Virus record (IMG/VR): IMGVR_UViG_3300047560_001287
Span: 1 to 64,000 of that record
Length of the DNA: 64,000 bases
Source: a virus
Lineage: Duplodnaviria > Heunggongvirae > Uroviricota > Caudoviricetes
Direction: 5' to 3' (one strand)
Below are positions 4,191 to 63,129 of this stretch, piece by piece. The position numbers were made by a program, and so were the translations under genes. The notes under the pieces were generated by a model. It worked only from the letters and a program-made list of their open reading frames with translations. It was not told where the DNA came from and searched no databases. Every line of letters begins with the position of its first letter. Positions within the stretch are counted from its first letter, which is position 1.

Positions 4191-4191
4191 A

Positions 4192-6858: not shown

Positions 6859-6860
6859 AA

Positions 6861-8194: not shown

Positions 8195-8213
8195 AGAATT
8201 ATGAAAGAAAGAA

Positions 8214-9262: not shown

Positions 9263-9498
9263 TCGATGTTCCAGAATATCAAGAAATCGACCTTAATGAG
9301 TACGAACGCAAAACTCGTGCTTGGGAACTGAAGTTCTGTTGGTTACCACAACGTTGTATTGAAACAATGCAGGTTATGTGGCTACAGTTTGCTTATCGTG
9401 GTTATAAGGCTCGTAGATATGATACGCAAATTATCGATTCGTATAAATGGATGTGCAAAGAAGAATTTATTATTTTGAGATTAAAAGGTGAGGTATGA
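9259..9498 (+). CDS. hypothetical protein (79 aa)
   Basis: ATGA overlap couplings on both sides. Confidence 0.35.
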   Translation: MIDVPEYQEIDLNEYERKTRAWELKFCWLPQRCIETMQVMWLQFAYRGYKARRYDTQIIDSYKWMCKEEFIILRLKGEV

Positions 9499-12360: not shown

Positions 12361-12367
12361 CTAGTAT

Positions 12368-13663: not shown

Positions 13664-13693
13664 AAAATTATTTATTGCGGATAAATTACTATT

Positions 13694-15819: not shown

Positions 15820-15838
15820 ATCGTTAATCCGTAAATAG

Positions 15839-15867
15839 TTGACTTTATTGCGTAATTGTGATACACT
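15839..15867 (+). promoter_or_regulatory. sigma70-like promoter (TTGACT-17-TACACT) for uvdE
   Basis: Seen in divergent intergenic region 15820-15896. Confidence 0.4.
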
Positions 15868-15896
15868 ATATCTATTATTTATCATTCCATTATCTT

Positions 15897-35969: not shown

Positions 35970-37535
35970 ATGCTTAAAAAAATTATAAATCTTTCCAATC
36001 TTACCTTATTGGTAGCACTGTCATTGAGTACAGTAGCTGCCTATTATAGTATCATAGGCTTAACTGCTATCTTTGCAGGAGCTGTTATCCCTATTATCGT
36101 CATGGGTTCTATCCTCGAAGTAGGCAAAATCACCACGACAGTTTGGTTACGTAAATACTGGCATCGTTGTGGCTGGGTACTAAAGATGTACTTGGTACCC
36201 GCTGTTGTATTGCTTGCGTTATTGACAAGCATGGGTATCTTTGGTTTCCTATCAAAAGCACACATGGATCAAGGTATTGTTTCGGGTGATAGTCAAGCCA
36301 AACTTGCATTGTATGACGAAAAGATTAAGACACAAAAAGATAACATTGAGACTGCACGTAAAGCATTAACACAAATGGATGCACAAGTTGACCAGATGTT
36401 GGGTCGAACTGACAATGATAAAGGTGCAGAACGTGCTGTTGCTATTCGTAGACAACAAGCAAAAGAACGTACTCTATTACAAAATGATATTGCAAACGCA
36501 CAAAAAGAAATCAGTAAACTAAACGAAGAACGTGCTCCTATTGCGGCTGAGAATCGTAAAGTAGAAGCAGAAGTAGGTCCTATCAAATATATTGCGGCTC
36601 TTATATATGGAGACAATGCTGACCAAAACATGCTTGAAGCCGCTGTTCGTTGGGTTATTATCTTGTTAGTTGTGGTGTTCGATCCACTTGCGATTGCGTT
36701 AGTTCTTGCGGCTAACCAAAGTAAGGATTGGGACGATAACGATGATGTTGAAGAAGAAAACAAACTACGTGAAAAAGTTCAACATGAAAAAGAAGTTCAA
36801 ACTATATTAGAAGATGAACCTAAATATGAACCAGATGATGGTCCACTAACAACTGACCAATTAGAGCAAATACAAGAAAGCGCAAAAGAAGAATCTATAT
36901 TAGATAAGCATCCGTATTTGACTAAACCATTCACACATTTTAAAAACACAACACCAATGGTTTATCAACCAGAACCCACACCAATTGATGATGTAGTTGA
37001 AACCCCCGTAGAAGAACCAGAGCCAGAGCCAGAAGTAGTAGCTGATGATGGCAAAAAAATACTTGCCGCAGGTATCGATGATATTGAACGTCCCGGTGAT
37101 TATCTAACTGCTCCAACTGAAATACAAACTGAAGGTGTTACAAAAGAAAAACCATTTAAAGAACTAGAAGGCGGCTATGTAGTCTATGATGGTAAGCACA
37201 TGGCTAAAGATGTATTGCAAGGAATGCATCCTGAGTTATTCAAATTAACTGCGGATTCTAGCAGATCAGTTAACACTAATTTTGGAACAGCATTTCCTGC
37301 TGTTGCACAAAAAGGTGATACTTTCGTTCGTGTTGACGTATTACCAAACCGTGTTTACAAGTTTGACAGCAAACGCTGGATTGAAGTGAACAAACAGGTT
37401 TCGGACACATATTTACACGATGAGGAATATATCAAATATCTTATCGAAATGATAGAAAATGGGCAGTACGACATAGACCTATTATCCGACAAGGAACGTT
37501 CGGAAATAGAACAGCATCTTACCCAAAAGCGTTGA
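35970..37535 (+). CDS. membrane-anchored coiled-coil protein (521 aa)
   Basis: Three N-terminal TM helices. Long coiled-coil. Fourth TM near residue 220. Acidic Pro/Glu-rich linker. Confidence 0.5.
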   Translation: MLKKIINLSNLTLLVALSLSTVAAYYSIIGLTAIFAGAVIPIIVMGSILEVGKITTTVWLRKYWHRCGWVLKMYLVPAVVLLALLTSMGIFGFLSKAHMDQGIVSGDSQAKLALYDEKIKTQKDNIETARKALTQMDAQVDQMLGRTDNDKGAERAVAIRRQQAKERTLLQNDIANAQKEISKLNEERAPIAAENRKVEAEVGPIKYIAALIYGDNADQNMLEAAVRWVIILLVVVFDPLAIALVLAANQSKDWDDNDDVEEENKLREKVQHEKEVQTILEDEPKYEPDDGPLTTDQLEQIQESAKEESILDKHPYLTKPFTHFKNTTPMVYQPEPTPIDDVVETPVEEPEPEPEVVADDGKKILAAGIDDIERPGDYLTAPTEIQTEGVTKEKPFKELEGGYVVYDGKHMAKDVLQGMHPELFKLTADSSRSVNTNFGTAFPAVAQKGDTFVRVDVLPNRVYKFDSKRWIEVNKQVSDTYLHDEEYIKYLIEMIENGQYDIDLLSDKERSEIEQHLTQKR

Positions 37536-37589: not shown

Positions 37590-38216
37590 ATGAAATCCCT
37601 TATCGCATGTATTGCTACGGTAATGCTTGTTGGTTGCGGCACTGTCAAAACCAACGACAACGAGCCTATTCGCAATCAGAAACTTTCTACCTCATTTGTG
37701 GCAGAAGGAATTAAAATTGAATCTGATTGTGCGTGGTATACAATCGACAAATCAAATTGCAATATTGTTTCCATTGAATCAGTAGGTACTGCTCCTACAA
37801 ATGGTAACACTATCAATAACCGTCAAACTGCATTCACACGTGCAGATTTGCGGGCACGTGCTAACATTCGTCACTTCTTACAAGAAGAAATCACTAGTTC
37901 ACGTGTTACAAACACCATTGCAAAGAACGTAGAGAAAGCTAACGACCGCATTAAGACTAAAATTAATGAAGGCGACAGTGTTTCTATGAGCGATGACGAA
38001 GCTAAAAAGGATACTAACTACGCTATCCGTGAAAATAGTAATGACACTGCCCATCAAGTAACAGAAACTATCCGCGCAAACGCTGTGGGTATCTTGCGTG
38101 GCTTTAGAGTCATTAAGCAGGAAGTAACAGGTCCACAAGAAGTTTCAGTGACTATTCGCTGGGACTTGGATAGCGACCGCACTGCTAGTCAATTACGTAA
38201 ACGTTTCGGTAATTAA
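37590..38216 (+). CDS. lipoprotein (208 aa)
   Basis: GGAGAAATAA RBS. MKSLIACIATVMLVGC lipobox. Confidence 0.55.
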   Translation: MKSLIACIATVMLVGCGTVKTNDNEPIRNQKLSTSFVAEGIKIESDCAWYTIDKSNCNIVSIESVGTAPTNGNTINNRQTAFTRADLRARANIRHFLQEEITSSRVTNTIAKNVEKANDRIKTKINEGDSVSMSDDEAKKDTNYAIRENSNDTAHQVTETIRANAVGILRGFRVIKQEVTGPQEVSVTIRWDLDSDRTASQLRKRFGN

Positions 38217-38218
38217 AC

Positions 38219-39196
38219 ATGCTACGGCTACTAGCAATAGTGGCATGTTTAATCTTGACTTCTTGTGCAAGCACACAAACCGATAGTTATATTCGTGTAA
38301 CCGGTGAAGGTGCAACACAAGAACAAGCAAAACAAAATGCCTTCCGTGAAGCTGTACAGATACGTGTAGGTTCTGTAGTTCTTAGTGAACGTGAGAGTTC
38401 ATTGCGTAAGTTAGAACGTGATGACATTAATGTTTATAGTGCAGGCTATGTTGACGATTACAAAGTTGTTTCGGTAGAACGAACAAATGGAAAAGTCAAA
38501 ATAACACTTGATGTTTTGGTTGCAGACAGTAAATTGGTCAACAACCGTCTAGTCTCAGGTAAAGTTACTAATCAAATCGAAGGTGACCGAGCCAACACAA
38601 ACTATCGCACGTTCATGGATCAAAAACAACGTGGCGATAAATTACTAAATTCAGTACTCAAGACATATCCTGAGTCTGCCTATATAGTTCAACAGAAAAA
38701 CTATAGCGTGAGCGTTAATGCCTATCGCAATATTGTGTTACAAGTTCCATATAAACTAACTTGGAACTATGATTACATCGTTGCATTTAACGAGGCACTT
38801 AACTTAATCCAAGACAATAAATTTGGCTATTTGCAACCAGCACCTAGTAATGTTATCGTCATGGCAAAAGACCCCAAAGATTTTGTATTAGGGGAACGCA
38901 AACATTTTAAATTCAACGATGTGCCATTACTTGACTACATGAAAAGTATGATGACAGACAATCGTGAAATTAGATTGATGATGACATTGCGAGACAGTGA
39001 CAACCGAGTTATGTACAAGGGTTGCTGGCCGATACAATCAACATTTTATGTTATGGGTGAGCCTAGAAATTTATTGATTTACGGTAACACAAAAGAAGAG
39101 GGGATATTGCAATTAGTTATCAATTCAGAGTATAATCAAGTATTAGAGAAATCTAGAAACATAGAGGTGTCAGTTGTTCCACGCATCAAGTGCTAA
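38219..39196 (+). CDS. lipoprotein (325 aa)
   Basis: MLRLLAIVACLILTSC lipobox. Confidence 0.55.
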   Translation: MLRLLAIVACLILTSCASTQTDSYIRVTGEGATQEQAKQNAFREAVQIRVGSVVLSERESSLRKLERDDINVYSAGYVDDYKVVSVERTNGKVKITLDVLVADSKLVNNRLVSGKVTNQIEGDRANTNYRTFMDQKQRGDKLLNSVLKTYPESAYIVQQKNYSVSVNAYRNIVLQVPYKLTWNYDYIVAFNEALNLIQDNKFGYLQPAPSNVIVMAKDPKDFVLGERKHFKFNDVPLLDYMKSMMTDNREIRLMMTLRDSDNRVMYKGCWPIQSTFYVMGEPRNLLIYGNTKEEGILQLVINSEYNQVLEKSRNIEVSVVPRIKC

Positions 39197-39234: not shown

Positions 39235-40437
39235 ATGTCACTTGAATCACTAAACCATTGCTCATTTTGCGGAAATCATAAAGATAAAGTTAAAAAACTT
39301 ATAGTAGGTGAGGACGTTGCTATTTGTAGCGACTGTATCGATTTATGCACACAATTAATCGAAGATGACGCTACCGTTGCCGATCCTGACCAAAAGAAAG
39401 AAGAAGTCAAGTATGACCCTATCGCTATCAAGGCGTACTTAGACCAGCATGTTATCGGACAAGATAGTGCTAAAACTGTATTGAGCGTTGCTATCGCTAA
39501 CCACTATAAGCGAATCACACACCCGCCCAAAGACTTAGAAATAGCTAAGGGTAATGTTCTTATTGTGGGGCCCACTGGTAGTGGTAAAACATTACTTGCT
39601 AAGACAGTTGCCAAGTATCTCAAGGTGCCCTTTGTCGTAGCAGACGCAACAAGTTTAACCGAAGCTGGTTATGTAGGTGATGACGTTGAATCAATGATTA
39701 GTATGCTAGTCAATGCCGCAGGTGGTGATGCTAAATTAGCAGAACGTGGAATTGTGTTTGTTGACGAGATTGACAAAATTGCACGTAAGGGCGAATCAAC
39801 TAGCGTTACCCGTGACGTGTCGGGTGAGGGCGTTCAGCAAGCATTACTCAAGTTAGTTGAGGGCACAGTCTGTCGTATTCCTGCAAGCGGTGGTCGCAAA
39901 CACCCAGGTGGTGAAATGCTAGAAATCAACACAAAGAATATTCTGTTCATTGCTGGTGGCGCATTCGTTGGATTGAAGGAAATCATCACAAATAGACAAC
40001 ATGGAACTAGTATTGGCTTTGGGGCAAATATCAGAGATAAGCGCAAAGAGGGTGAGTTAGCACAAGTAAGCCCCGACGACCTAACTAAATTTGGAATGAT
40101 TCCTGAATTTATCGGTAGATTCACGACTACTGTAAGTATTAAAGAACTGTCCAAAGACGAGTTAAAACATGTCCTGACCAATGTGAAAAACAACTACATT
40201 GAGCAATACAAGTACCTGTTCAGCATTGATGAAATTGAGTTGGAGTTTGCTGATGACGGACTTGGCCAGATTGTTGACAATTGCTTGAAACTGAAAACGG
40301 GTGCCCGTGGTCTACACACTGAAATCGAGAGGGTCCTAATGCCCCATATGTTCAATTTGCAGAAATATCGTGAAAGTAAAATCAAAAAGATAAATATTAA
40401 TCAGGAGCAAGTTTTAGAACCAAAAGCATTGATATGA
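39235..40437 (+). CDS. clpX: ATP-dependent Clp protease ATP-binding subunit ClpX
   Basis: Zinc-binding CSFCG...CSDC. Walker A GPTGSGKT. Pore-1 GYVG. ClpP-docking IGFGA loop. Sensor GARGL. Collinear with E. coli ClpX. Confidence 0.95.
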   Translation: MSLESLNHCSFCGNHKDKVKKLIVGEDVAICSDCIDLCTQLIEDDATVADPDQKKEEVKYDPIAIKAYLDQHVIGQDSAKTVLSVAIANHYKRITHPPKDLEIAKGNVLIVGPTGSGKTLLAKTVAKYLKVPFVVADATSLTEAGYVGDDVESMISMLVNAAGGDAKLAERGIVFVDEIDKIARKGESTSVTRDVSGEGVQQALLKLVEGTVCRIPASGGRKHPGGEMLEINTKNILFIAGGAFVGLKEIITNRQHGTSIGFGANIRDKRKEGELAQVSPDDLTKFGMIPEFIGRFTTTVSIKELSKDELKHVLTNVKNNYIEQYKYLFSIDEIELEFADDGLGQIVDNCLKLKTGARGLHTEIERVLMPHMFNLQKYRESKIKKININQEQVLEPKALI

Positions 40438-40655
40438 GTATAAAGGGTAGACGAGTAATAGTACAAGACGGGAATGTTGAAAAAGCATTACGCAAATTCA
40501 AAAAGAAGATTACTGAACAAGGATTGATTCAGGAAGTCCGCGACCGTCAAGAATTCGTCAAACCCACTGTCAAGCGAAAACTTGCTAAAGGACAAGCCAA
40601 GCGTAGATGGCAAAAATACTTGCGTGACCAGAGCTTGCCCAAGAAACTATATTGA
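40434..40655 (+). CDS. rpsU: 30S ribosomal protein S21
   Basis: ALRKFKKKITEQGLIQEVRDRQEFVKPTVKRKLAKGQAKRR matches bS21. ATGA overlap with clpX. Confidence 0.85.
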   Translation: MSIKGRRVIVQDGNVEKALRKFKKKITEQGLIQEVRDRQEFVKPTVKRKLAKGQAKRRWQKYLRDQSLPKKLY

Positions 40656-40762
40656 CCTAAATATTAGATTTTTTTGCGTATTTTTTATAAAATAAATACG
40701 TATTCAGATGCCGATGGTCGGGTCTGAAACATGTCATACTTGCTTATTAAAGGAGAAAACAA

Positions 40763-41200
40763 ATGACAAAAACACTATCCCTTCGTTCCCTCGACATTCC
40801 GTCAATTCACAAATTTGGTATCGGTTTCGATAACATGTTTGACGATTTGATGCGATTAAACAGTCAACAATCACTAAACTATCCCCCATACAACATCGTC
40901 AAAAATACCGAAGACTCCTTCGATATTGAGATTGCTGTATCTGGCTTCAGTGAAGGTGAAGTTGAGGTCAATCTTGACAACCGAGTATTGACTGTTAAGG
41001 GTCAGAAGAAGGAAGACTTGGTAGCCGAATACCTACACAAGGGTATTAGCACACGTGATTTCGTGCGTGAGTTTACGCTAGCAGAGCACGTTGAAGTTAT
41101 CAATGCTTCACAAAAAGACGGCATTCTAACTATTCAACTAGAACGTGTTGTTCCAGAAGAAAAGAAGCCAAAAGCAATTGCTATTAATTACACTAAATAA
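40763..41200 (+). CDS. ibpA: small heat-shock protein (Hsp20/IbpA family)
   Basis: GGAGAAAACAA RBS. Alpha-crystallin domain: PPYNIVK..FDIEIAVSGF..EVEV..LTVKG, GISTRDFVREF, ILTIQL. Confidence 0.85.
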   Translation: MTKTLSLRSLDIPSIHKFGIGFDNMFDDLMRLNSQQSLNYPPYNIVKNTEDSFDIEIAVSGFSEGEVEVNLDNRVLTVKGQKKEDLVAEYLHKGISTRDFVREFTLAEHVEVINASQKDGILTIQLERVVPEEKKPKAIAINYTK

Positions 41201-41210
41201 TATAATAGCT

Positions 41211-41239
41211 GTGAGTAGTCGTTAGGCTACTCACTTTTT
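41211..41239 (+). terminator. rho-independent terminator after ibpA
   Basis: GTGAGTAGTC-GTTA-GGCTACTCAC stem then TTTTTC. Confidence 0.6.
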
Positions 41240-41264
41240 CAACTATTAGATAAGTGATATTAAA

Positions 41265-41576
41265 ATGTCTAAAACGCAAACAGAAACAAAAATCAAAATT
41301 AAACCCAATCTAGCGTTACAAGAACCACCGTTGTACAAAATCATTTATATGAATGACGATGTGACTAGTATGGAATTTGTAGTGGGTAGCTTAATCGATT
41401 ATTTCAACTACACCGAAGACACAGCCTCGAATATCACTGTAAATATTCACGAGCAGGGTTCTGCGGTCGTTGCAGTACTACCATACGAAATTGCCGAACA
41501 AAAGGGAATTGAAGTTACGTTAGATGCACGTAGCCAGGGATATCCGTTACAAGTCAAAATCGAAGCAGAAGGTTAA
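41265..41576 (+). CDS. clpS: ATP-dependent Clp protease adaptor ClpS
   Basis: PPLYKIIYMNDDVTSMEFVVGSL...VNIHEQGSAVVAV matches ClpS core. Confidence 0.8.
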   Translation: MSKTQTETKIKIKPNLALQEPPLYKIIYMNDDVTSMEFVVGSLIDYFNYTEDTASNITVNIHEQGSAVVAVLPYEIAEQKGIEVTLDARSQGYPLQVKIEAEG

Positions 41577-42265
41577 ACTTCTATTCGTTTCGCCCAATAA
41601 GGCTTTCTTCCAAAATAAGAGTTATTGATATAGTTGATACCGTTGATATGTGTATCAACTATTTTTCTATACGTCCCGTAAACCCAATGTGTTACTTTCT
41701 TTTCAGTATCAACTGGTAACACCATGTCTAGGGAAAGTTGAGTTACTGTTGTTTCAGGCTCTTCACCGAAATACAGAACTGGACCTGGAACACTATTAGA
41801 AACTAGGATAACGCTTTTTACGTCCAAGTGTTTCTGTAATCTTTCTAGTGTTGATTTGAGGTAAGATAAATCCTCATGTCTTGCGTTTTCAATTGCTTGT
41901 TCAGAATCAAAATCTGTAGGTACTGTATTTCCGTACCAGCCGTTTGCCCCTGCAATTGCTATACCATCTATGATTACAACGTGATGGTGTAGATACGCTG
42001 TATTCTTTACTCCTCTACATATCTTCTGTAATTCACTAGTTCTTTTATCTATGTCAATTACATTATTATATTCCAGAGATCCAGAGATATAAAATACCCC
42101 TTGATAAAATTTTGACAAATGAAGTAGGGTTTGTCTAATCGTTCTTAATTCGTCACTAATGTTTCCTGCAATTATGCAGTATAGACTAGTAGCTTTACCC
42201 TCCCAATTGAAACTATCCTCAGGGGATAGATTCAAATCGCTGATTACATCAAACCCTATTTTCAT
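41573..42265 (-). CDS. hypothetical protein (230 aa); possibly degenerate metallophosphoesterase fold
   Basis: ISDLNL / AGNISDE / ISGSLEYN loosely echo calcineurin-like motifs but metal ligands are not conserved. Confidence 0.3.
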   Translation of the reverse strand: MKIGFDVISDLNLSPEDSFNWEGKATSLYCIIAGNISDELRTIRQTLLHLSKFYQGVFYISGSLEYNNVIDIDKRTSELQKICRGVKNTAYLHHHVVIIDGIAIAGANGWYGNTVPTDFDSEQAIENARHEDLSYLKSTLERLQKHLDVKSVILVSNSVPGPVLYFGEEPETTVTQLSLDMVLPVDTEKKVTHWVYGTYRKIVDTHINGINYINNSYFGRKPYWAKRIEV

Positions 42266-42585
42266 TACTTTGCGACGGTCATTTTTGGCTTTTTAGGCGC
42301 CTTTGGTTTTGCTGTCTTTTCTGCTTTTGGCTTAGCAGGTGCTTTAGCTTTCTTTGGCTTAGCTGTCATTGCGGCCGCAGGTGCTTTAGTAGCGTTTGGA
42401 TTATCTGCGTGTACAGCCCATTCTTCTGGGGTCAACTTGTGTAGACCTACACAGTTTCCTGTCTGACTGCGACCACACCCACATTTAGCAGGACCAGCTT
42501 GAACCGGCGTTTCTACTTTATATGGTGCTTCAGGTGCAGTTTCAGATGTACCGAAACCAAACAACTTCTTTAGATAGTTTAACAT
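42265..42585 (-). CDS. small Cys-cluster protein with AKPK-repeat basic tail
   Basis: CGCGRSQTGNCVGLH then KPKKAKAPAKPKAEKTAKPKAPKKPK. Confidence 0.45.
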   Translation of the reverse strand: MLNYLKKLFGFGTSETAPEAPYKVETPVQAGPAKCGCGRSQTGNCVGLHKLTPEEWAVHADNPNATKAPAAAMTAKPKKAKAPAKPKAEKTAKPKAPKKPKMTVAK

Positions 42586-42652
42586 GTTATTCTCCTTACA
42601 GTTTATTTATCTACTCATACATTACGTCACTTTAATCTTTAAATAAAATATT

Positions 42653-43144
42653 ATGCTCAGAAAAAACGTGCTTTTAGATTTGATGCAGGAAGAACCCCCT
42701 AGCATTAGTTATCAAAAACGCCTTGGATATCGAACTGATATCTATGAGGTCATATACCTATACCGACTGATAAACAAAGCTGTTTTCAAAAATGCACTAG
42801 AAATGCCAGAAATCGAGGTAGTTCCTAGATGTAGGAAATACTGGGGTATGTGCTATGCATCATGGGAAAGATTACCCGGTCGTAGAAGTTATTGCAAAAT
42901 ACGATTGATGGACAAGTGGTATTCGCATCATTGGTTAATATCAACATTAGCACATGAAATGTGCCACCAGTATCAGTGGGATATACAGGGTGCTCAAAGA
43001 CGTAGTAAGGGCAAAGAGCCTATTATGAGTCATGGTCCCAGTTTCTTTGTTTTCCGAGAAAAATTAAAGAAGCATGGCATTCCACTAAAAAGCGCACACA
43101 GTAAACGCAAATGGTTCAAGACACAAGATTTGTTTAAAACATAA
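42653..43144 (+). CDS. SprT-like zinc metallopeptidase domain protein
   Basis: LAHEMCHQY HExxH motif in SprT-like context. Confidence 0.55.
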   Translation: MLRKNVLLDLMQEEPPSISYQKRLGYRTDIYEVIYLYRLINKAVFKNALEMPEIEVVPRCRKYWGMCYASWERLPGRRSYCKIRLMDKWYSHHWLISTLAHEMCHQYQWDIQGAQRRSKGKEPIMSHGPSFFVFREKLKKHGIPLKSAHSKRKWFKTQDLFKT

Positions 43145-43163
43145 AATCGCATAAATACACATT

Positions 43164-44690
43164 ATGCGTGATATTTTAAACAACCTAGAACTATTAACAG
43201 AAAGTACCGGTTTAGCAGGACGTAAACCAGGTGACTTATTCCGTAACTCACACGGTGATGAAATTGTATTCCAGAGTATTCAATTTTTCCCCGAAGGTGG
43301 TGGCAAATATACGCCTGAACAATTAGACCAAGCAATTGCAGACGTTGAACAACAAGTAGGCGACATTGATTGGCAGAATCAAAAAACTGCACGAGCAGGT
43401 GGATTCGGTATAGCAACATTCACCGGCGCACAAGGTAATATGGTTATAGGTCGTTATTTGCAAGAAATTAATCCAAACATAAAGGATAATTACATTGCAA
43501 ATAAAGTAGGTGATTTCAAGTACGCAGGCAAAGCCGCAGAAAAAATTCAATCAGGTTTAAGCCCGCAAGATTTATTAGGTGATAGAATTGATTTAACTAT
43601 CGCTGATGTTATGAACCAATTAGCAATGAGCTTGGGTACTGATAACCCTCTATACGCTGTAGCACATAGATTAGCGACAGGTAGTCCATTACCAGTAACG
43701 TTCCCGACACCAGAAGGATATAGCTTTACTGCTTTCCGTGATTACTTCTGTGAAATTTTACAACCAATCGCATTACAAAAAGGTCAATACACAGGTAACG
43801 CAGGTGAAGCCGCTGAGAAATTTATGGGTGGTTCATTTGAGAACACATTAATTTCTTTTGACGAAAGCAAAACAGCAGGTTTAAGCGATAGTATATTGAC
43901 TAATGATAGCGGACAATTTATTAAAATTAGTACCAAAGGTGGCAAGGGTGCAACAGCTAGTGCTAAAAATTTGTTAGATACAATTGAAGAATTGAAACTA
44001 ACAAAAGAGGGCAAGAAACTGTTAAGCAAATACAAAGACGTTATTGATATGTTGCAACAAATCAAAGATGCAGGTCAAGCAGGATCACCTTTATTATTAG
44101 GTTTGCGTTATGGCATCATTGATGAGAAAGATGCAAAATCAATTGAAGAATTAAAAGGTGTGGGTCCAGTTAATTTAACACACATTGCTACTATGGGTCT
44201 AAGCAAGAACTTACAAAAACTTGCTAACCAGCGTGGTACAGATAACCCAGATAGTGTTAATTTATTCTATCACTTGATTGCCGCTGTAGCACACAAAGCC
44301 GCAGACGAAGTGAACAAGCATACAAACTTTAGTAAGGCAGCTGCCGAAATTTTAAACAACGGTGCGTTGGTACAAGTTTACACTTCGGCAAAAGAAAATA
44401 AAGATTCATGGACACTAGGTGAATTCGACACAGTTTACCCAGGTGACTCAATCAAAGGTGTTTACCTATCAGCAGGTAAAACATATTACAGTACAGGTAT
44501 CAAAGGAAACTTTACATTCAAAATTGATAAAGGTAAGGGAGTTCCGAAAGATGAAGATGAAGGTGAGAAGGGTGAAGCTACAAAATCAAGTGGCAGATCA
44601 ACTCGCCGTGGATTAGAAAAAGCCGCACAACAAATCACTAATCCACAAAATAAACCCACTGAACGTGGCATGCGTAGCACACGTAAATAA
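43164..44690 (+). CDS. hypothetical protein (508 aa), basic C-terminal tail
   Basis: Long ORF. Function unrecognised. Confidence 0.5.
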   Translation: MRDILNNLELLTESTGLAGRKPGDLFRNSHGDEIVFQSIQFFPEGGGKYTPEQLDQAIADVEQQVGDIDWQNQKTARAGGFGIATFTGAQGNMVIGRYLQEINPNIKDNYIANKVGDFKYAGKAAEKIQSGLSPQDLLGDRIDLTIADVMNQLAMSLGTDNPLYAVAHRLATGSPLPVTFPTPEGYSFTAFRDYFCEILQPIALQKGQYTGNAGEAAEKFMGGSFENTLISFDESKTAGLSDSILTNDSGQFIKISTKGGKGATASAKNLLDTIEELKLTKEGKKLLSKYKDVIDMLQQIKDAGQAGSPLLLGLRYGIIDEKDAKSIEELKGVGPVNLTHIATMGLSKNLQKLANQRGTDNPDSVNLFYHLIAAVAHKAADEVNKHTNFSKAAAEILNNGALVQVYTSAKENKDSWTLGEFDTVYPGDSIKGVYLSAGKTYYSTGIKGNFTFKIDKGKGVPKDEDEGEKGEATKSSGRSTRRGLEKAAQQITNPQNKPTERGMRSTRK

Positions 44691-44703
44691 TTAACCAAAT
44701 CTA

Positions 44704-44732
44704 TTGTAGTTATAAAAACTCTCTGTTATACT
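44704..44732 (+). promoter_or_regulatory. possible promoter TTGTAG-17-TATACT upstream of clpP
   Basis: In 68-bp gap. Followed by TAAGGAGAG RBS. Confidence 0.4.
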
Positions 44733-44758
44733 ATAGGTATCACTAATTAAGGAGAGTT

Positions 44759-45352
44759 ATGAGTTTAGTTCCAATCGTTGTTGAATCAACAAGTAAAGGC
44801 GAGCGTAGTTATGACATTTATAGTCGCCTTCTAAAAGACCGTGTCATTCTCCTAGAGGGTGAAGTTCATGACCACATGGCAAACTTAATTGTTGCCCAAC
44901 TATTGTTCTTGGAAAGTGAAGATGCGACAAAAGACATTTCTATGTACATTAACTCGCCCGGTGGTAGTGTTACCGCAGGCATGGCGATCTACGATTGTAT
45001 TCAGTTTATTAGTCCCGATGTACAGACGATTGTTATGGGTCAGGCATGTAGTATGGGTTCTCTCCTCGCACAAGCGGGAGCGCCAGGCAAAAGGTTTATG
45101 CTCCCCAATGCACGACACATGATTCATCAGCCATCGGGTGGTGCTCGTGGTATGCAAAGTGATATTGAAATCAGTTACAAGGAAATCACTTACTTGAAAA
45201 AGCGACTAACTGAAATCTATGTTAGCCACAATTCAAAGGGCAAAACATACGAGGACTTTGAACGTGACATGGATCGTGATAAGTTCATGTCAGCACAAGA
45301 GGCGTTAGAGTACGGATTGATTGATGAAATCGTAACAAAACGCAATGCTTAA
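44759..45352 (+). CDS. clpP: ATP-dependent Clp protease proteolytic subunit ClpP
   Basis: Ser-His-Asp triad contexts: [45 protein letters not shown]. Confidence 0.95.
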
Positions 45353-52913: not shown

Positions 52914-53182
52914 AGTACTATACATTTTACCGCGAATCTAATAACTTTGATGATATCCTAAAGGATCCTATTGTTAAACAAATCGTTGATATAAAAATTA
53001 AATGGTTTCGACATTTAATGGTTGGTATTGAATCAGAAAAGAATGAACAGAATTTTAGTTTAATCACGTTAAAGTACGGTGATGACATGATTAATCCCGT
53101 AGCTAAAGACTACACACCCATTGCAGGTGTTGATTATACTCCCAAGAAAGATAAAAATAAGTACGTGAAGAAACAAGTTTAA
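52910..53182 (+). CDS. hypothetical protein (90 aa)
   Basis: ATGA overlap. Confidence 0.35.
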   Translation: MKYYTFYRESNNFDDILKDPIVKQIVDIKIKWFRHLMVGIESEKNEQNFSLITLKYGDDMINPVAKDYTPIAGVDYTPKKDKNKYVKKQV

Positions 53183-53916
53183 TGTAAACTTGCAATCATC
53201 TTTGCTTCAGGAATACGTGTCTTTGTATTCTTGCTTCCCAATAAAACAACTGTTCTAACACCGTTGTTTGTTTTTAACATCATTACAATACATCCGCCAC
53301 TCTTGCGAATAAAGCCTGTCTTGCTCACTATAAAATCAAAGTCATGACCTACAAGTGAATTAGTATTGTTAAACGTTGCGACCTTTTTAGAAGTGATAGG
53401 ATATGTCAATCTCATAGTGTTGCTAGCCTTTGTAATAACATTATACGCACTTGCGGCTGATACTAACTTAATTAAATCCTCTGCTGTACTTACGTTTGTG
53501 TCGTATAATCCAGTTGGATCAGTGAATTCACTGCGAAACATTCCCAATGCCATTGCTTTGTCATTCATTGCCCTTACACAACTTTTATATCCACCTGGAT
53601 AAAAATCGCACAATATCTTTGCCGCACTGTTGTCTGATTTAACAATCGATAGTTCTAGCAATTCTAACCGTGTAAATTTTTTGTTGTGTAATTTTTTTGG
53701 AATTGTTTCTAATAATGATTGACCGCTATCTAACACAACTATAGCAGACATTAATTTAGTTATGCTACCAATCGCACGTACTTCTGCTATGTTTGACCCC
53801 TCAAGAATGTTCCCCGCTTCATCAGCTAGCAACCATGCTTGTGCAGTCAATGGAGTTGCAGTTGCAGATAAAACAACCAAAAAGGAACATATAAATGTTA
53901 CCAATTTTCTAATCAT
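53179..53916 (-). CDS. secreted S11-family D-alanyl-D-alanine carboxypeptidase/endopeptidase (PBP, PbpG/DacA-like)
   Basis: Signal peptide. SITKLM (SxxK), SDN, KTG motifs in order. AGAGGA RBS. Confidence 0.75.
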   Translation of the reverse strand: MIRKLVTFICSFLVVLSATATPLTAQAWLLADEAGNILEGSNIAEVRAIGSITKLMSAIVVLDSGQSLLETIPKKLHNKKFTRLELLELSIVKSDNSAAKILCDFYPGGYKSCVRAMNDKAMALGMFRSEFTDPTGLYDTNVSTAEDLIKLVSAASAYNVITKASNTMRLTYPITSKKVATFNNTNSLVGHDFDFIVSKTGFIRKSGGCIVMMLKTNNGVRTVVLLGSKNTKTRIPEAKMIASLH

Positions 53917-54242
53917 AGAGATTTTCCTCTTGGGTAGGGAACTACATTAAACTCCTTTCCATACCCAATTACACATGATAATGAATTTTTAGTTGCAATA
54001 ATAGACCACGTACTTAAAGTCGGGTGTATCCAAATACTCATTATAGATTCGGCTTCATCATCAGCCTTACCAGTAGCTAACGGTACTTCTCTGTAGCTAC
54101 GGCGTAGTTCTCCGAATAGAACATCAGTGTCAAAACACTGAGCCTCAAACGTGATGGCTTCGGGTTCAATCGGAGGTAATTTTTTAGCGTCTTGTGCATA
54201 AACTGAACTTATACACAATACAAGTAAGAGTTTTTTAAACAT
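53913..54242 (-). CDS. secreted hypothetical protein (109 aa)
   Basis: Signal peptide MFKKLLLVLCISSVYAQ. Confidence 0.45.
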   Translation of the reverse strand: MFKKLLLVLCISSVYAQDAKKLPPIEPEAITFEAQCFDTDVLFGELRRSYREVPLATGKADDEAESIMSIWIHPTLSTWSIIATKNSLSCVIGYGKEFNVVPYPRGKSL

Positions 54243-54245
54243 TAG

Positions 54246-54383
54246 TTATTTAGTCTTTTTAGGTTTAGTCGGTTGTGTTTCTTCCTTCATTTTTTTCATA
54301 ACCTTAACAGACATTGGACTCTGGTGATGAGGTGTTTGTTTTGGTTGCTCTTTTAATCTAGGTCTTCTCATAAACCAACTCAT
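54246..54383 (-). CDS. small basic protein (45 aa)
   Basis: AGGAG RBS 7 nt upstream. Lys/Pro-rich. Not in supplied track. Confidence 0.3.
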   Translation of the reverse strand: MSWFMRRPRLKEQPKQTPHHQSPMSVKVMKKMKEETQPTKPKKTK

Positions 54384-54398
54384 AGTCATTCTCCTATG

Positions 54399-54418
54399 AA
54401 AAAGCCCCTTTCGGGGCT
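54399..54418 (-). terminator. rho-independent terminator (minus strand)
   Basis: AGCCCC-TTTC-GGGGCT stem, with T-run on minus strand. Confidence 0.5.
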
Positions 54419-54421
54419 GAA

Positions 54422-54613
54422 TTATTTGTAAAAGTATTCAAATACTTTTTCTTCTGCCTCTTCATAAGTCAATGCTAATAATCGTACTGTAACAGTTTTG
54501 TTATTAAATTGCATGTCATATGGGACGATTCCCGCAAATGTGAAATCATCAGGCAAAACTAAAGAAACCTCATATTCTTTGAGGTTTCCGTCTGATGGTC
54601 GGGTTATACCCAC
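54422..54613 (-). CDS. hypothetical protein (63 aa)
   Basis: ORF immediately upstream of terminator. Confidence 0.35.
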   Translation of the reverse strand: MGITRPSDGNLKEYEVSLVLPDDFTFAGIVPYDMQFNNKTVTVRLLALTYEEAEEKVFEYFYK

Positions 54614-55149
54614 AACCAGATACCTTGAACTAGCATTAGTACTCCAACGCCCGCAACGTATAAACTGGTCTTATACATTTTATTGTTGACTGCTAAAATA
54701 CTAGCAGACAATAAAACAATCGCTAATTGGAATATCATACTAGCAAACGTTAACCACGGACCATGTTTAGCCGCATCATCTCTTGCTTCTTCAAATGCTC
54801 TAGCCTTTGCAAGCAATTCTTTCTTACCTTCACCTGACTTTGGATCAGATTCGTAGCGGTCGATCTTAGCTTGTAGTTTCTCTATCTTTGCTGTGTCTTT
54901 GCGTTGCATCGCATCGTCTAATTGACCTTCAGCAATTGCTTGCTTGATACTCTTAGATTGATAGAAAGCGTATGTGTCTGTAGCCTTTAACATGTTCTTC
55001 ATTACAGCACCTGAGTGCTTGTTTCCAAAGTACGTAGTTAATGCCATAAACAATGCCATGATAACGATAACTAATCCTGCTTTGTCTTTGATTAATGCTT
55101 CACGCTCTGAACGTGATAATGGTTTAACTTCTTTTTGTTCTTCTGCCAT
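54604..55149 (-). CDS. membrane protein (181 aa)
   Basis: AGGAG RBS before ATG 55149. Two TM helices. Coiled-coil middle. Confidence 0.45.
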   Translation of the reverse strand: MAEEQKEVKPLSRSEREALIKDKAGLVIVIMALFMALTTYFGNKHSGAVMKNMLKATDTYAFYQSKSIKQAIAEGQLDDAMQRKDTAKIEKLQAKIDRYESDPKSGEGKKELLAKARAFEEARDDAAKHGPWLTFASMIFQLAIVLLSASILAVNNKMYKTSLYVAGVGVLMLVQGIWLWV

Positions 55150-55169
55150 GATTTTCTCCTTTAATTTAT

Positions 55170-55325
55170 TTAGTGTTTGTCCCACCATCTAATGAATACG
55201 ATTAATATTGCTATACTAATCGCAAATATAGTTGCTAGCACAAAATTTACAATAATTGATGCTATAAGTATTCCCCTGTTCAACAACCAGTTCCAAAGTG
55301 TGTGGTATTCTCTTATTAAACTCAT
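55170..55325 (-). CDS. small membrane protein (51 aa)
   Basis: TM ILIASIIVNFVLATIFAISIAILIVFI. Confidence 0.3.
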   Translation of the reverse strand: MSLIREYHTLWNWLLNRGILIASIIVNFVLATIFAISIAILIVFIRWWDKH

Positions 55326-55326
55326 A

Positions 55327-56109
55327 TTATCTTCCAGTATACACCTTTGGTTGGGCATCTTTGATGCGTTGTGCTTCTGTCTTTGGAATCCAGTCTTCTC
55401 CCAAATGAGGGTATTTCTTTATTCTATCTTCAACGACTAGAGCTAATCCTAGTCCTATCCCGGCAGCAATAACAACTGCACCCATACCCCAAGCGGCTTC
55501 AAGCCAAAGTTTTTCAATTCTCTTTTTTCTTTTAACTGAGGCAGCGTGGTCTTCACGCATCTTTTTAGAAATTAACACTTGTTGTTCTTTGCCCATCTGT
55601 TCCATCATATCAGAAACTTCAGTGTACAAAGCACCCAACTCAGGTGGCGATTGGTAAATCATAACTTCACGTAATTCTTTACCCATCTCCTCTAATTGTT
55701 TACGCATCAAAATACGTTGCAATGCACGTTTGCCTAAACTAGCATCTCCTGTGTATACTTCTGTTTTGGCACGTTTTTCTTCTTCATCAAAGATAGCAAC
55801 GCACTTGTAATAATTGTCGTAGTATGCGCCTAGTTGTTCACCTATGTCTTTATAGATATCAGTGTGTTGACCGGCATTTGCTTTTTTGTTTAGGTCTACA
55901 ATTTTGTTGCGTTCTTGAACATACTGATTGCGTTGTTCTACTGTAGCAGGCTTTTCTGGGGGATGGAGTTTATGAAACTGGTCGTCAAGGTCTTTGAGGA
56001 CTTCTTTCACTTCCCCAGCGGCACCCTTGATATCTTTATACAGTTTACAACCTGCCTTAACTGCGGATACAGCTCCGTTGGCAAGTGCAAACAGCGTCAA
56101 TGGATCCAT
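55327..56109 (-). CDS. coiled-coil protein with C-terminal TM anchor (260 aa)
   Basis: Start at ATG 56109 (called start 56172 is TTG). TM AAWGMGAVVIAAGIGLGLALVV. Confidence 0.45.
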   Translation of the reverse strand: MDPLTLFALANGAVSAVKAGCKLYKDIKGAAGEVKEVLKDLDDQFHKLHPPEKPATVEQRNQYVQERNKIVDLNKKANAGQHTDIYKDIGEQLGAYYDNYYKCVAIFDEEEKRAKTEVYTGDASLGKRALQRILMRKQLEEMGKELREVMIYQSPPELGALYTEVSDMMEQMGKEQQVLISKKMREDHAASVKRKKRIEKLWLEAAWGMGAVVIAAGIGLGLALVVEDRIKKYPHLGEDWIPKTEAQRIKDAQPKVYTGR

Positions 56110-56203
56110 CCCAAATTGTTCTTTCTTCTTATTATTATTGTATAAATATTTAGCTGTTTTCGGTGAAAACAATCACGCAATATAATGGCCTACTAAATAT
56201 AAC

Positions 56204-61206: not shown

Positions 61207-61422
61207 ATGGCAAAAGAAGAAGGCATTAAGATGGATGGCAAAGTAGTTGAAGTGTTACCCAACGCCACCTTCAGAGTAACACTAAATGCAGGTCAAACTG
61301 TAATGGGTTATATCTCAGGAAAAATGCGTCAACATGATATTAAAATTCTATTAGGTGACACAGTAGAAGTCGAATTTAGTCCATACGACCTGACAAAAGG
61401 ACGAATTGTAAGGCGTAGATAA
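61207..61422 (+). CDS. infA: translation initiation factor IF-1
   Basis: [60 protein letters not shown] is collinear with bacterial InfA S1-like fold. Confidence 0.85.
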
Positions 61423-62046
61423 ATGCAATTCTGTAATGGATTGCTAGGACACGACCCTAGTGAATATTTCAATACTAGCGGTCATAGGTGTAAAGAACTA
61501 AAAGATGTAGACTTACACAAATACATTTTATTTGTGGGTGACAACGTGGGTGTAGATTTATCTAAACCAGTTGAAGAAACCTACCCTTATTTAATCAGTC
61601 AACGTTTAAAGATGGATTATTATAATCTATGCGTCTTTAACGGTGGGCTGGATGCCATCAAGTTTAACTTGATATCTTGGTTTCAACTAGTCCCCCAGAA
61701 ACCCAAAATGATAATCGTCAGTACAGAGTTTTTAAACTCTATCATAACATCCGATCATAATCATTCGTTTTTTACCCCTGCTGATTATAACAATCAGGTG
61801 ACAAAAGATTTCACTGATGCAGGAAACTTCAATGGATTTTTCACTACACGGAAGCTACTATTTGAAAAGTTAATTAGCAATTTAATCAATATACCTATCT
61901 ACCAAATAGAGTTCAAAGATAAATTACCCGCGTTCACTACAAACGTGATTAACATCAAGTACGACGGGGGCATGTTTGACCATCATTCAATTTCAAAAGA
62001 AGTAATAAACAAAATAAATGAATTAACAGTGAGGATCAAACCATGA
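61423..62046 (+). CDS. SGNH/GDSL-hydrolase-like paralog 1 (nucleophile Ser apparently replaced: GDN)
   Basis: YILFVGDNVG (block I-like), DHHS near C-terminus. Paralogous to next gene: GHRCKELKDVDL / TYPYLISQ / DYYNL. Confidence 0.45.
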   Translation: MQFCNGLLGHDPSEYFNTSGHRCKELKDVDLHKYILFVGDNVGVDLSKPVEETYPYLISQRLKMDYYNLCVFNGGLDAIKFNLISWFQLVPQKPKMIIVSTEFLNSIITSDHNHSFFTPADYNNQVTKDFTDAGNFNGFFTTRKLLFEKLISNLINIPIYQIEFKDKLPAFTTNVINIKYDGGMFDHHSISKEVINKINELTVRIKP

Positions 62047-62780
62047 AATTTTATGAAGATTTCCTAGGAGAAGATTTCGCCAATATTCAAATGATGTTTG
62101 CAGGTGAGGATAGTGAAGAACAGTTTGAAAAAAACAAAAAATCACAGCCACCGGATTGGTATTATATTAACAAACCAATTGAATATGCTTATAACAGCTA
62201 CGGTCATAGGTCAAAAGATTTGCAGGATATAGATTTAGACAATTATGTATTATTCACTGGATGTAGTCATACATCTGGTGTTGGAATAGAATTAGAAAAA
62301 ACATACCCTTACTTAGTAAGTCAGCAATTAAATTGTGATTATTACAATTTAGCAATGCCCGCTACGGGTATAGATGTACTAGAATATAACTTATTAACCT
62401 GGTTCGCTAAAGTAAAAAAGAAACCTAAAATTGTATTCATACAATGGCCCGATTGCAGTAGATATATAACATACAATGATGAATTTAAACACGGTATAAC
62501 TAGCGGGTCTTGGGAAAAAGATCCAGATAAAATGAAATTTATTGCAAGCGGCGATTTATCCGGATTTTTTAATGCTCGGGTAAAATTTACAGTTGATTTA
62601 ATACGTACTGTAGTAGAATCACAAACTAGACTTATAACATGTAATATCAGCGGGCAAGTCCCATACGATATGGAAAATTTTACAATGCGAACGATAGATA
62701 AAGCGAGAGATTTGAGTCATGCAGGAATCAATTCCAATTCTACTTTTGCAAAAGCAATCTTAGAACGACTACAGCAATAA
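62043..62780 (+). CDS. SGNH/GDSL-hydrolase-like paralog 2
   Basis: VLFTGCSHTSG (GxSxT block I-like). DLSHAG (DxxH block V). ATGA overlap. Confidence 0.5.
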   Translation: MKFYEDFLGEDFANIQMMFAGEDSEEQFEKNKKSQPPDWYYINKPIEYAYNSYGHRSKDLQDIDLDNYVLFTGCSHTSGVGIELEKTYPYLVSQQLNCDYYNLAMPATGIDVLEYNLLTWFAKVKKKPKIVFIQWPDCSRYITYNDEFKHGITSGSWEKDPDKMKFIASGDLSGFFNARVKFTVDLIRTVVESQTRLITCNISGQVPYDMENFTMRTIDKARDLSHAGINSNSTFAKAILERLQQ

Positions 62781-62802: not shown

Positions 62803-63129
62803 ATGAATCTAACAATAACCGAATCAGCACAACAAAAAATAGCCGACGTATTAGCGGAAGAAAACAACCCAAATCTACGACTACGAATGTTCATTCAAGG
62901 TGGCGGATGCGCTGGCTTTAGTTATGGATTTACACTAGACGAAGAACAAAATGAAGATGATTTTGAGGTCTCCGCAGGATCCACAAGTGTACTAGTTGAT
63001 AGTATGTCAGCACAGTATGTAAACGGTGCTGAAATTGATTTTATAGACGATTTGAGTGGGTCGAGATTCAGTATCAAAAACCCACAAGCATCAAGTACCT
63101 GCGGTTGCGGGAGTAGTTTCAGCGTGTAA
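62803..63129 (+). CDS. erpA: A-type iron-sulfur cluster carrier/insertion protein (ErpA/IscA family)
   Basis: LRMFIQGGGCAGFSYGF and C-terminal CGCGSSF. The three conserved Cys are present. Confidence 0.85.
   Translation: MNLTITESAQQKIADVLAEENNPNLRLRMFIQGGGCAGFSYGFTLDEEQNEDDFEVSAGSTSVLVDSMSAQYVNGAEIDFIDDLSGSRFSIKNPQASSTCGCGSSFSV

Follow-up and report, generated by a model that had tools for sequence, protein, structure and literature searches.

A conserved island of Clp protease, ClpS adaptor and chaperone genes in an uncultivated lineage of jumbo phages

The 64,000-nt stretch of viral DNA analyzed here (hereafter the window) carries a compact cluster of genes for protein turnover and folding, preceded by an upstream flank of three further genes. 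Features are listed below, with per-gene conservation counted out of 82 loci.

35970..37535, + strand: 521-aa protein with N-terminal membrane segments, acidic middle and conserved C-terminus; homologue 5' of ClpX in 68 of 82 loci
37590..38216, + strand: predicted lipoprotein, N-terminus MKSLIACIATVMLVGC, with a signal peptide and lipobox-like Cys in its sequence
38219..39196, + strand: predicted lipoprotein, N-terminus MLRLLAIVACLILTSC, with a lipobox-like signal; kept in 46 of 82 loci
39235..40437, + strand: ClpX AAA+ unfoldase (Pfam zf-C4_ClpX, 1.9e-13; AAA_2, 4.4e-32; ClpB_D2-small)
40434..40655, + strand: ribosomal protein bS21 homologue (Pfam Ribosomal_S21, 1.2e-15); in 60 of 82 loci
40763..41200, + strand: Hsp20 / alpha-crystallin small heat-shock protein (Pfam HSP20, 5.7e-19); in 82 of 82 loci
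41211..41234, + strand: terminator-like hairpin between hsp20 and clpS, a 10-bp stem followed by TTTTT
41265..41576, + strand: ClpS N-degron adaptor (Pfam ClpS, PF02617, 2.2e-24, 85.5 bits against a cut-off of 23)
41573..42265, - strand: metallophosphoesterase-like protein (phrog_1649, metallo-phosphoesterase, E 1e-5); in 82 of 82 loci
42265..42585, - strand: 106-aa protein, Cys-rich in its N-terminal half and with a tail rich in Lys, Ala and Pro
42653..43144, + strand: SprT-like zinc metallopeptidase with an HEMCH motif (Pfam SprT-like, 8.5e-10); in 50 of 82 loci
43164..44690, + strand: 508-aa phage-restricted protein with a basic disordered tail
44759..45352, + strand: ClpP serine peptidase, S14 (Pfam CLP_protease, 1.3e-80, 270 bits)

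The identities and coordinates given to ClpX, S21, Hsp20, ClpS and ClpP in an initial annotation made from the sequence are borne out by these Pfam matches, and all five appear functional in full. Four genes between ClpS and ClpP (metallophosphoesterase-like, 106-aa, SprT-like and 508-aa) had not been named there. The metallophosphoesterase-like gene is convergent with clpS, overlaps it by 4 nt, and encodes a product with no Pfam match; the 106-aa protein has no Pfam or PHROG family match, and its position is occupied in loci L640-L642 by a gene of 94-101 aa; the 508-aa protein possibly contains a PD-(D/E)XK nuclease-like domain. In the upstream flank, the 521-aa protein has only a weak PHROG match (virion structural protein phrog_11591, E 7e-4) and neither lipoprotein has a family match, the one at 37590..38216 being kept between the 521-aa gene and ClpX in 45 of the 82 loci. 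The start of the S21 gene overlaps the clpX stop codon by 4 nt (ATGA, read from the sequence), and S21 is probably translationally coupled to clpX. Hsp20 displays an I-A-I motif at its C-terminus. The hairpin that follows it is the best terminator-like site within 35.5-46.5 kb; its role as a terminator is only suggestive, because the 11 such sites in that interval are not in excess of the number in shuffled sequences (8.4 +/- 3.1).

The features ascribed earlier to the two protease components were confirmed by Pfam matches and by alignment with their E. coli counterparts. ClpX, which scores 405 bits against full-length E. coli ClpX, consists of an N-terminal C4 zinc finger and a single AAA+ module without any extra domain, and retains Walker A (GPTGSGKT), Walker B (VFVDEIDK), the GYVG pore loop, the RKH loop, the IGF loop for docking ClpP (SIGFGA) and the sensor-2 motif GARGL. 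ClpP (261 bits against E. coli ClpP) begins at the mature N-terminus, without a propeptide, and has the full catalytic triad of Ser (GQACSMG), His (MIHQP) and Asp (DRDKF), aligned with S97, H122 and D171 of E. coli in mature numbering. Homologues are found in 74 of the 82 loci for ClpX (63-84% identity) and in 66 for ClpP (70-92%).

ClpS aligns without gaps to the core of the E. coli and Caulobacter proteins, and matches solved ClpS chains with E values of 1.5e-15 to 3e-12. Its residues N30, D31, D32, T34, M36 and H62 correspond to N34, D35, D36, T38, M40 and H66 of E. coli ClpS, which form the N-degron pocket of that protein. Among 173 unique ClpS sequences of the clade, N34, D35, T38 and H66 are conserved without exception and M40 in 95%, while D36 varies among D, N and E; the further pocket position M62 is Thr in the window's ClpS. 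A degraded pocket had been named beforehand as grounds for abandoning the initial interpretation, and the pocket proves to be intact. The part of ClpS that varies least across the clade is the helix that contacts ClpA, and the segment LPYEIAEQKGIEVT is essentially invariant in the 173 sequences. In described ClpS, residues E79, E82 and K84 of helix 3 contact ClpA, with E28/T81, R86 and E23 as their partners (PMC12493166). All three are present in the window's ClpS (E75, E78 and K80), and in the clade they are conserved at 100%, 100% and 97%, respectively. The core is preceded by an N-terminal extension of about 21 residues, joined to it by an E-P-P junction that is invariant in the clade sequences; the role of such an extension and proline junction has been described (PMC9663308). 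In these respects (core fold, pocket, ClpA contacts, and N-terminal extension with its proline junction), the phage protein matches ClpS from E. coli and Caulobacter.

The island belongs to an uncultivated lineage of jumbo phages, with genomes of about 300-370 kb, from lake metagenomes, in which it forms a conserved accessory module. Its gene order is common to all 80 IMG/VR viral loci fetched, which upholds the earlier view of it as a phage proteostasis module, and in each of the relatives fetched no more than 1 kb separates clpS from clpX, S21 and hsp20. Relatives of ClpS occur on at least 572 IMG/VR contigs of up to 367 kb, and related contigs reach 303-374 kb, exceeding the 200 kb by which jumbo phages are defined. 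Counting these contigs, the lineage has the jumbo-phage proteostasis gene set of Clp ATPases, ClpP, ClpS, small heat-shock protein and DnaJ. That the region is instead a Clp operon of bacterial origin, or a chimera created in assembly, with a spurious phage context, might be proposed from the failure of family searches to identify capsid, portal or terminase genes in the window, and from the 50-65% identity of its Clp proteins to cellular counterparts. We give this explanation almost no credence, in view of the abundance of close ClpS relatives and the shared gene order on viral contigs. The window itself also encodes phage-type DNA ligase, exonuclease and endonuclease families, a GP88 domain gene (14248-15885, - strand) and, at its 3' end, a tail-fibre-like repeat protein; it contains no tRNA gene, its ORFs are dense, short and mostly on one strand, and its GC content (~38%) is uniform. 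Moreover, the closest ClpX sequences in cellular genomes are only ~50% identical, with a single exception at 60%, and that "cellular" sequence sits on a contig bearing the phage island itself.

In the window, ClpS has no ClpA beside it. The largest ORF is no more than 545 aa, and a phage-ClpA profile applied to the six-frame translation matches only ClpX, in agreement with the absence originally reported; the same profile finds only ClpX within +/-10 kb of ClpS in 80 relatives. The corollary drawn from that absence, that ClpS lacks a ClpA partner, does not hold in the relatives, where a clpA elsewhere in the genome, named beforehand as a refuting finding, is indeed present. Four island-bearing contigs encode a DnaJ-ClpA pair on the strand that carries ClpS, 57-66 kb farther upstream, at the following positions.

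IMGVR_UViG_3300023174_002543: ClpS near 207.5 kb, ClpA 271.7-274.0 kb
IMG/VR 3300027736_001324: ClpS 257.2 kb, ClpA 193.1-195.4 kb
IMG/VR 3300044732_000442: ClpS 103.3 kb, ClpA 43.7-46.0 kb
GenBank JBMFGH010001160.1: ClpS 125.4 kb, ClpA 61.1-63.4 kb

The ClpS of JBMFGH010001160.1 is 89% identical to that of the window, and its island is collinear with the window's at protein identities of 57-89%. Both genes are likewise present on a fifth contig, 3300047558_000137, which is more distant and whose ClpS is 58% identical to the window's. Considered as a whole, the earlier interpretation is thus partly supported. The ClpA of these relatives, directly preceded by DnaJ, aligns with E. coli ClpA end to end (586 bits) and shares its Clp_N domain, its two AAA+ rings (D1 and D2) and a ClpP-docking loop, without a ClpB-type middle domain. 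At least 354 IMG/VR contigs encode relatives of this ClpA, and 163 phage ClpAs retain Walker A and B in each ring together with KYR, GYVG and the IGF loop; the residues that face ClpS (E28, T81 and R86) are invariant, and E23 is mostly Gln. The N-domain and loop positions of the E. coli reference in this motif census agree with the separate end-to-end alignment to E. coli ClpA.

Since only 41 kb of the window precedes ClpS, the position held by ClpA in the relatives falls outside it and the absence of the gene is to be expected; the apparent lack of ClpA is most likely a product of the window boundaries, and synteny with the relatives suggests that the source genome carries ClpA. Gene order around ClpA is nonetheless not fixed among relatives. 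On some related contigs, homologues of the window's DUF4337 gene (54604-55188, - strand) and/or of its neighbour (55327-56172, - strand) are found within a few kb upstream of DnaJ-ClpA, and elsewhere ClpA is followed, 2-10 kb downstream, by a homologue of the window's GP88 gene. Because these homologues of ClpA neighbours are present in the window with no ClpA alongside, loss of ClpA from the source genome is possible. Several large contigs with ClpS (3300027969_000039, 3300046787_000200 and 3300043418_000114 among them) were not among the 80 ClpA matches listed of about 354, which counts neither for nor against their having the gene.

These findings bear on which partner ClpS might serve. Phage ClpS genes have been discussed as adaptors handing targets to host ClpAP (Iyer et al. 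2021, PMC7824862), and an inhibitory effect of ClpS on ClpAP turnover of ssrA-tagged substrates is known (PMC9663308). Acting mainly on host ClpA (or ClpC), as the initial annotation also suggested, the phage protein would shift host ClpAP to N-degron substrates at the expense of ssrA-tagged proteins and others, as a form of takeover or as protection for phage proteins. Binding to the N-domain of host ClpA is plausible because phage ClpS shares the contact residues of E. coli ClpS, and in some phages that encode ClpS, such as the Pseudomonas phage PA5oct group, no ClpA has been reported next to it. However, the island-bearing relatives have a ClpA of their own in which the matching contact residues are invariant, so that a host partner is unnecessary to explain ClpS, and the sole hint of a host is a related contig that binning placed in a Bacteroidota MAG. 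We therefore regard a chiefly host-directed role as unlikely, while recognizing that it is compatible with service to a phage ClpA. A ClpS repurposed to act independently of ClpA, whether by working with phage ClpX (for example through its zinc-binding domain) or by sequestering bulky hydrophobic N-termini, is a good deal less probable still. Such a role would accord with the constant proximity of clpS to clpX, S21 and hsp20, and with one sister lineage whose island lacks clpX and whose ClpS pocket is altered (D36E, M40V). It is difficult to reconcile with a clade in which the ClpA-contact helix is the most invariant region of ClpS, with the presence of a ClpA bearing complementary residues on the same contigs, and with a ClpX zinc finger that is ordinary and has no added domain; we also know of no described interaction between ClpS and ClpX.

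Neither the gene repertoire nor the proposed feeding of host ClpAP by phage ClpS is new to the literature. The Agrobacterium jumbo phage Atu_ph07 encodes ClpX, ClpA, ClpB, ClpP and ClpS (PMC6102473), as well as Hsp20 (PMC7824862) and S21 (PMC11242549), and its ClpA adjoins DnaJ. Together with its relatives, Sinorhizobium phages Phosso and AP-J-162, it has a Clp and chaperone repertoire like that of the window lineage, in which, however, no ClpB was seen. Among deposited phages, these are also the source of the ClpP closest to the window's (Phosso, 69% identity; Atu_ph07, 67%), their ClpX being ~50% identical. The window shows no DNA-level similarity to deposited phages, and no ClpS from a deposited phage exceeds 42% identity to its own, with homologues in the PA5oct group and Salicola phage SCTP-2 at 30-32%. 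The organization also differs: whereas the window lineage has one conserved 6-kb island, the Clp genes of Atu_ph07, Phosso and AP-J-162 are scattered over 470-490 kb (Atu_ph07: ClpX 0.9 kb, ClpA 226 kb, ClpP 464 kb; Phosso: ClpP 30 kb, ClpX 381 kb, ClpS 398 kb). Bacteria typically have a clpS-clpA operon, unlike the phage arrangement, in which clpS adjoins clpX and lies about 60 kb from clpA in the relatives. Relative to E. coli, the phage proteins have Thr at pocket position M62, D, N or E at D36, mostly Gln at ClpA E23, and IGF rather than IGL in the docking loop of ClpA. The N-degron pathway of E. coli and Caulobacter is cellular, while that of the window lineage is virus-encoded.

In our judgment, this is probably a phage equipped with its own Clp machinery, comprising ClpXP and a canonical ClpS for which a phage-encoded ClpA is the likeliest partner. 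ClpX and ClpP, having between them all the needed motifs, would assemble into a ClpXP protease. The partner of ClpS would be a ClpA encoded beside DnaJ about 16-25 kb before the window start; ClpS would dock on its N-domain through the helix residues E79, E82 and K84, and the pocket would grip proteins with an N-terminal Leu, Phe, Tyr or Trp. The N-terminal extension of ClpS may then enter the ClpA pore, with the bound protein degraded by ClpA and phage ClpP, docked through the IGF loop of ClpA. Physical pairing of the proteins is in each case predicted. Hsp20 and DnaJ may hold unfolded proteins or pass them on, and S21 may act on host ribosomes. We infer that the module as a whole would serve in quality control of a very large phage proteome, in the breakdown of host proteins, or in both.

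The five genes that the initial annotation had grouped as a phage-borne proteostasis island were all found by Pfam at the positions given for them within 39235-45352, and four more genes occupy the interval between ClpS and ClpP.

Genes of the island in the window
39235-40437, + strand: ClpX (Pfam zf-C4_ClpX, AAA_2 and ClpB_D2-small)
40434-40655, + strand: S21 (Pfam Ribosomal_S21)
40763-41200, + strand: Hsp20 (Pfam HSP20)
41265-41576, + strand: ClpS (Pfam, 85.5 bits against a cut-off of 23)
between ClpS and ClpP, minus strand: metallophosphoesterase-like gene (phrog_1649)
between ClpS and ClpP: 106-aa Lys/Ala/Pro-rich protein
between ClpS and ClpP: SprT-like metallopeptidase (Pfam)
43164-44690, + strand, between ClpS and ClpP: p508, a 508-aa protein with no family match
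44759-45352, + strand: ClpP (Pfam, 270 bits)

The window ClpX aligns with E. coli ClpX over its whole length (405 bits) and keeps Walker A, Walker B, GYVG, the RKH loop, the IGF loop and GARGL, while ClpP (261 bits against E. coli ClpP) has Ser, His and Asp all in position and an N-terminus corresponding to the mature start; these alignments bear out the earlier reading of GYVG and IGF in ClpX and of Ser-His-Asp in ClpP. The intervening genes are not obviously linked to protein quality control, and the predicted structure of p508 (pLDDT 77.6) gave only weak matches, to PD-(D/E)XK endonuclease folds and to uncharacterised phage proteins. The overlap of clpX and S21 as ATGA, together with a strong hairpin and T-run 3' of hsp20, suggests that clpX, S21 and hsp20 form a single transcription unit with clpS partly separate, in a window where promoter and terminator scans overall were not above chance. 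Directly upstream of clpX are two predicted lipoproteins in tandem (37590-39196, + strand) with lipobox-like signals and no family match, which roughly half the related loci retain.

The sequence features of the window ClpS are those of a canonical family member. No gaps are needed to align it with E. coli ClpS, window residue n corresponding to E. coli residue n+4, or with Caulobacter ClpS. Throughout a census of 173 distinct sequences of its clade, the pocket residues N34, D35, T38, H66, F42 and V43 (E. coli numbering) are invariant, M40 is 95% conserved and M62 is Thr, so that the N-degron pocket is intact on alignment rather than degenerate. Window position 32 (E. coli D36) is D in 46%, N in 28% and E in 25% of the clade, with the rest of the pocket otherwise invariant, and this variable position may tune N-degron binding. 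The stretch of the ClpA-contact helix, LPYEIAEQKGIEVT, is essentially invariant in the clade and includes E79, E82 and K84, which in E. coli ClpS touch ClpA residues E28/T81, R86 and E23 (PMC12493166). Some 21 residues precede the core in the 173 sequences, ending at an invariant E-P-P junction, and in the window protein this N-terminal extension matches the one described as going into the ClpA pore (PMC9663308).

At the DNA level the island matched no deposited phage by Megablast, and the ClpS genes of deposited phages (the PA5oct group, SCTP-2 and Phosso) are distant, at most 42% identical. A ClpS relative is encoded on at least 572 IMG/VR viral contigs of up to 367 kb, with identities of 76-86% among the 80 matches listed. 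One order is shared by 80 of the 80 loci fetched: a 521-aa protein (35970..37535, + strand, in the window), (two lipoproteins), ClpX, S21, Hsp20, ClpS, phosphoesterase (minus strand), (SprT and/or p508), ClpP. The context is that of a widespread, uncultivated jumbo-phage lineage from lake metagenomes.

The published gene set of phage Atu_ph07, which encodes ClpX, ClpA, ClpB, ClpP and ClpS (PMC6102473) and whose ClpA adjoins DnaJ, prompted a search for ClpA in relatives of the window. Starting from Atu_ph07 ClpA, only distant ClpAs of marine and soil phages came up, and with an alignment of these the matches listed were unrelated ClpAs. A 281-aa protein neighbouring the island (55327-56172) led to ClpA-bearing contigs, and the ClpA found there to a ClpA family on at least 353 IMG/VR contigs. 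A ClpA-specific degenerate DNA pattern for the motif EKDRALMRRF, used as search key, matched IMGVR_UViG_3300023174_002543, which also has the island and whose 766-aa ClpA scores 866 bits against the ClpA profile; this in-clade ClpA as query yielded two further contigs with both ClpA and ClpS. In each of the four contigs listed here clpA and clpS share a strand, clpA being 57-66 kb upstream.

Contigs encoding both ClpS and ClpA
IMGVR_UViG_3300023174_002543 (367,104 bp): ClpS at ~207.5 kb, ClpA at 271.7-274.0 kb
3300027736_001324 (263,709 bp): ClpS at ~257.2 kb, ClpA at 193.1-195.4 kb
3300044732_000442 (116,115 bp): ClpS at ~103.3 kb, ClpA at 43.7-46.0 kb
GenBank JBMFGH010001160.1 (166,453 bp): ClpS at 125.4 kb, ClpA at 61.1-63.4 kb

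The GenBank contig has DnaJ-ClpA at 60.3-63.4 kb, and its 115-136 kb segment (ligase ... ClpX, S21, Hsp20, ClpS, phosphoesterase on the minus strand, a 94-aa gene on the minus strand, SprT, p508, ClpP) is collinear with window 28.8-50.7 kb, the proteins being 57-89% identical and ClpS 89%. A fifth, more distant contig, IMGVR_UViG_3300047558_000137 (374 kb), encodes ClpA and a ClpS 58% identical to that of the window; several large ClpS contigs were absent among the ClpA matches listed. In the fifth contig the ClpS (2762-3076 of fetched locus L202) carries D36E and M40V in the pocket and an identical ClpA-contact helix, the island runs S21, a 362-aa gene, Hsp20, ClpS without ClpX, and DnaJ-ClpA is ~107 kb from ClpS.

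These relatives encode, on the evidence of alignment and motifs, a real ClpA. The phage protein matches E. coli ClpA over its full length (586 bits), has a Clp_N domain and follows directly on a DnaJ gene. Among 163 sequences both Walker A/B pairs, KYR and GYVG are kept, the ClpP-docking position is an IGF loop, and the ClpS-contact residues are retained, E28, T81 and R86 without variation and E23 as either Glu or Gln.

The initial annotation was correct that no ClpA lies in the window, which contains no ORF longer than 545 aa and in whose six-frame translation a profile built from phage ClpAs matches ClpX only. With ClpS at 41.3 kb and synteny placing ClpA ~16-25 kb before the window start, this absence is expected. 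The adaptor without a partner is thus most likely a window-edge effect, and the source genome, judged by synteny, probably carries its own ClpA. When metagenomes were scanned with the leftmost gene of the window, the best match was only 80% identical and no ClpA turned up within 10 kb. IMG/VR contained no match to an exact 42-mer of the window, and for two window proteins the contig matches listed were Logan contigs of 1-3 kb. Gene order is not rigid: some related contigs have homologues of the DUF4337, 281-aa and GP88 proteins at a distance of a few kb from ClpA, and the window copies have no ClpA alongside. Two of these genes belong to a minus-strand cassette (53179-56172) of a Peptidase_S11 D-Ala-D-Ala carboxypeptidase, a 109-aa gene, the DUF4337 protein and the 281-aa protein; in some related contigs homologues of either or both of the last two precede DnaJ-ClpA by no more than a few kb, and the lack of a ClpA beside the window copies suggests that the ClpA module has been rearranged relative to its surroundings.

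The best-supported reading is that the phage would supply two Clp proteases, ClpXP and ClpA-ClpS-ClpP, with Hsp20 and DnaJ adding holdase and co-chaperone functions. The earlier proposal, in which ClpS redirects or inhibits host ClpAP, is less probable as the main account, although ClpS may act on host ClpA as well; the idea is already in print (PMC7824862), and against it as the main account stands the phage ClpA of the relatives. That ClpS works with ClpX finds no support. ClpS is not orphaned in the relatives, and the sharper puzzle of the initial annotation falls away; in practical terms, a partner gene missing from a 64-kb window of a ~350 kb genome is weak evidence.

The window otherwise has phage-type genes (DNA ligase, 5'-3' exonuclease, UvdE and a GP88 domain), an even GC of ~38%, and no tRNA, capsid or terminase gene. 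A sugar-modification and repair block spans 397-16931.

Genes of the block
397-1173: cytidylyltransferase-like gene
1170-2357 and 9495-10850: glycosyltransferases
10847-11671: NAD-dependent epimerase
12368-13663, minus strand: radical SAM gene
14248-15885, minus strand: GP88-domain gene
15858-16931: UV endonuclease UvdE

Near the 3' end, a 71-aa IF1 homologue (61207-61422, + strand; Pfam eIF-1a label on an identical Logan gene) makes, with S21, two translation factors in the window; in other jumbo-phage contigs, IF1 homologues of 45-58% identity precede ClpA by 1-1.5 kb. The phage also encodes an iron-sulfur cluster assembly protein of the HesB/IscA type (62803-63129, + strand; Pfam Fe-S_biosyn), with two DUF6473-like genes nearby (61423-62780). 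The gene downstream of this region, considered as a ClpA candidate, was rejected: it encodes a Gly/Thr/Ser/Asn-rich repeat protein (63181-64000, + strand, running past the window end; >371 aa, longer in a Logan contig) that looks like a tail fibre, and which the ORF listing misses, being open at the window end, in favour of a spurious 264-aa minus-strand ORF. No clear donor lineage or host emerged when cellular genomes were scanned for ClpX. Counterparts of the 521-aa protein, ClpX, Hsp20, ClpS and phosphoesterase, at 32-63% identity, are encoded on NZ_JBBAKG010000031.1, a 70 kb contig (GC 45%) binned with a Haliscomenobacter sp. (Bacteroidota) MAG; this is either a weak host hint or a binning error.

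ClpP, ClpS, ClpA, ClpX, SprT-like peptidases, Hsp20 and DnaJ have already been described in jumbo phages, and delivery of targets to host ClpAP by phage ClpS already suggested (PMC7824862; PMC6102473; PMC11242549). New here are a lake-metagenome lineage that is uncultivated and very abundant, the compact and conserved island uniting ClpX, S21, Hsp20, ClpS and ClpP, and the ~60 kb between clpS and clpA. It is conceivable, though we consider it improbable, that this cosmopolitan lineage carries a complete, self-contained system of two unfoldases, ClpXP and ClpA-ClpS-ClpP, with its own DnaJ and sHsp, its N-degron arm serving as a programmed degradation pathway. If so, a phage peptidase, such as the SprT-like one, could expose destabilising N-termini, host proteins being destroyed and amino acids recycled in nutrient-poor hosts, and the tight linkage of clpS with clpX, S21 and hsp20, instead of with clpA, would be a sign of translation takeover co-regulated with proteolysis. 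Among very abundant, uncultivated giant phages of lakes there is a near-complete Clp degradation system of bacterial type, including an N-degron adaptor and a ClpA of their own; part of it is packed with a ribosomal protein into a conserved 6-kb island. This makes the lineage well suited to asking what giant phages gain from protein quality control genes of their own.
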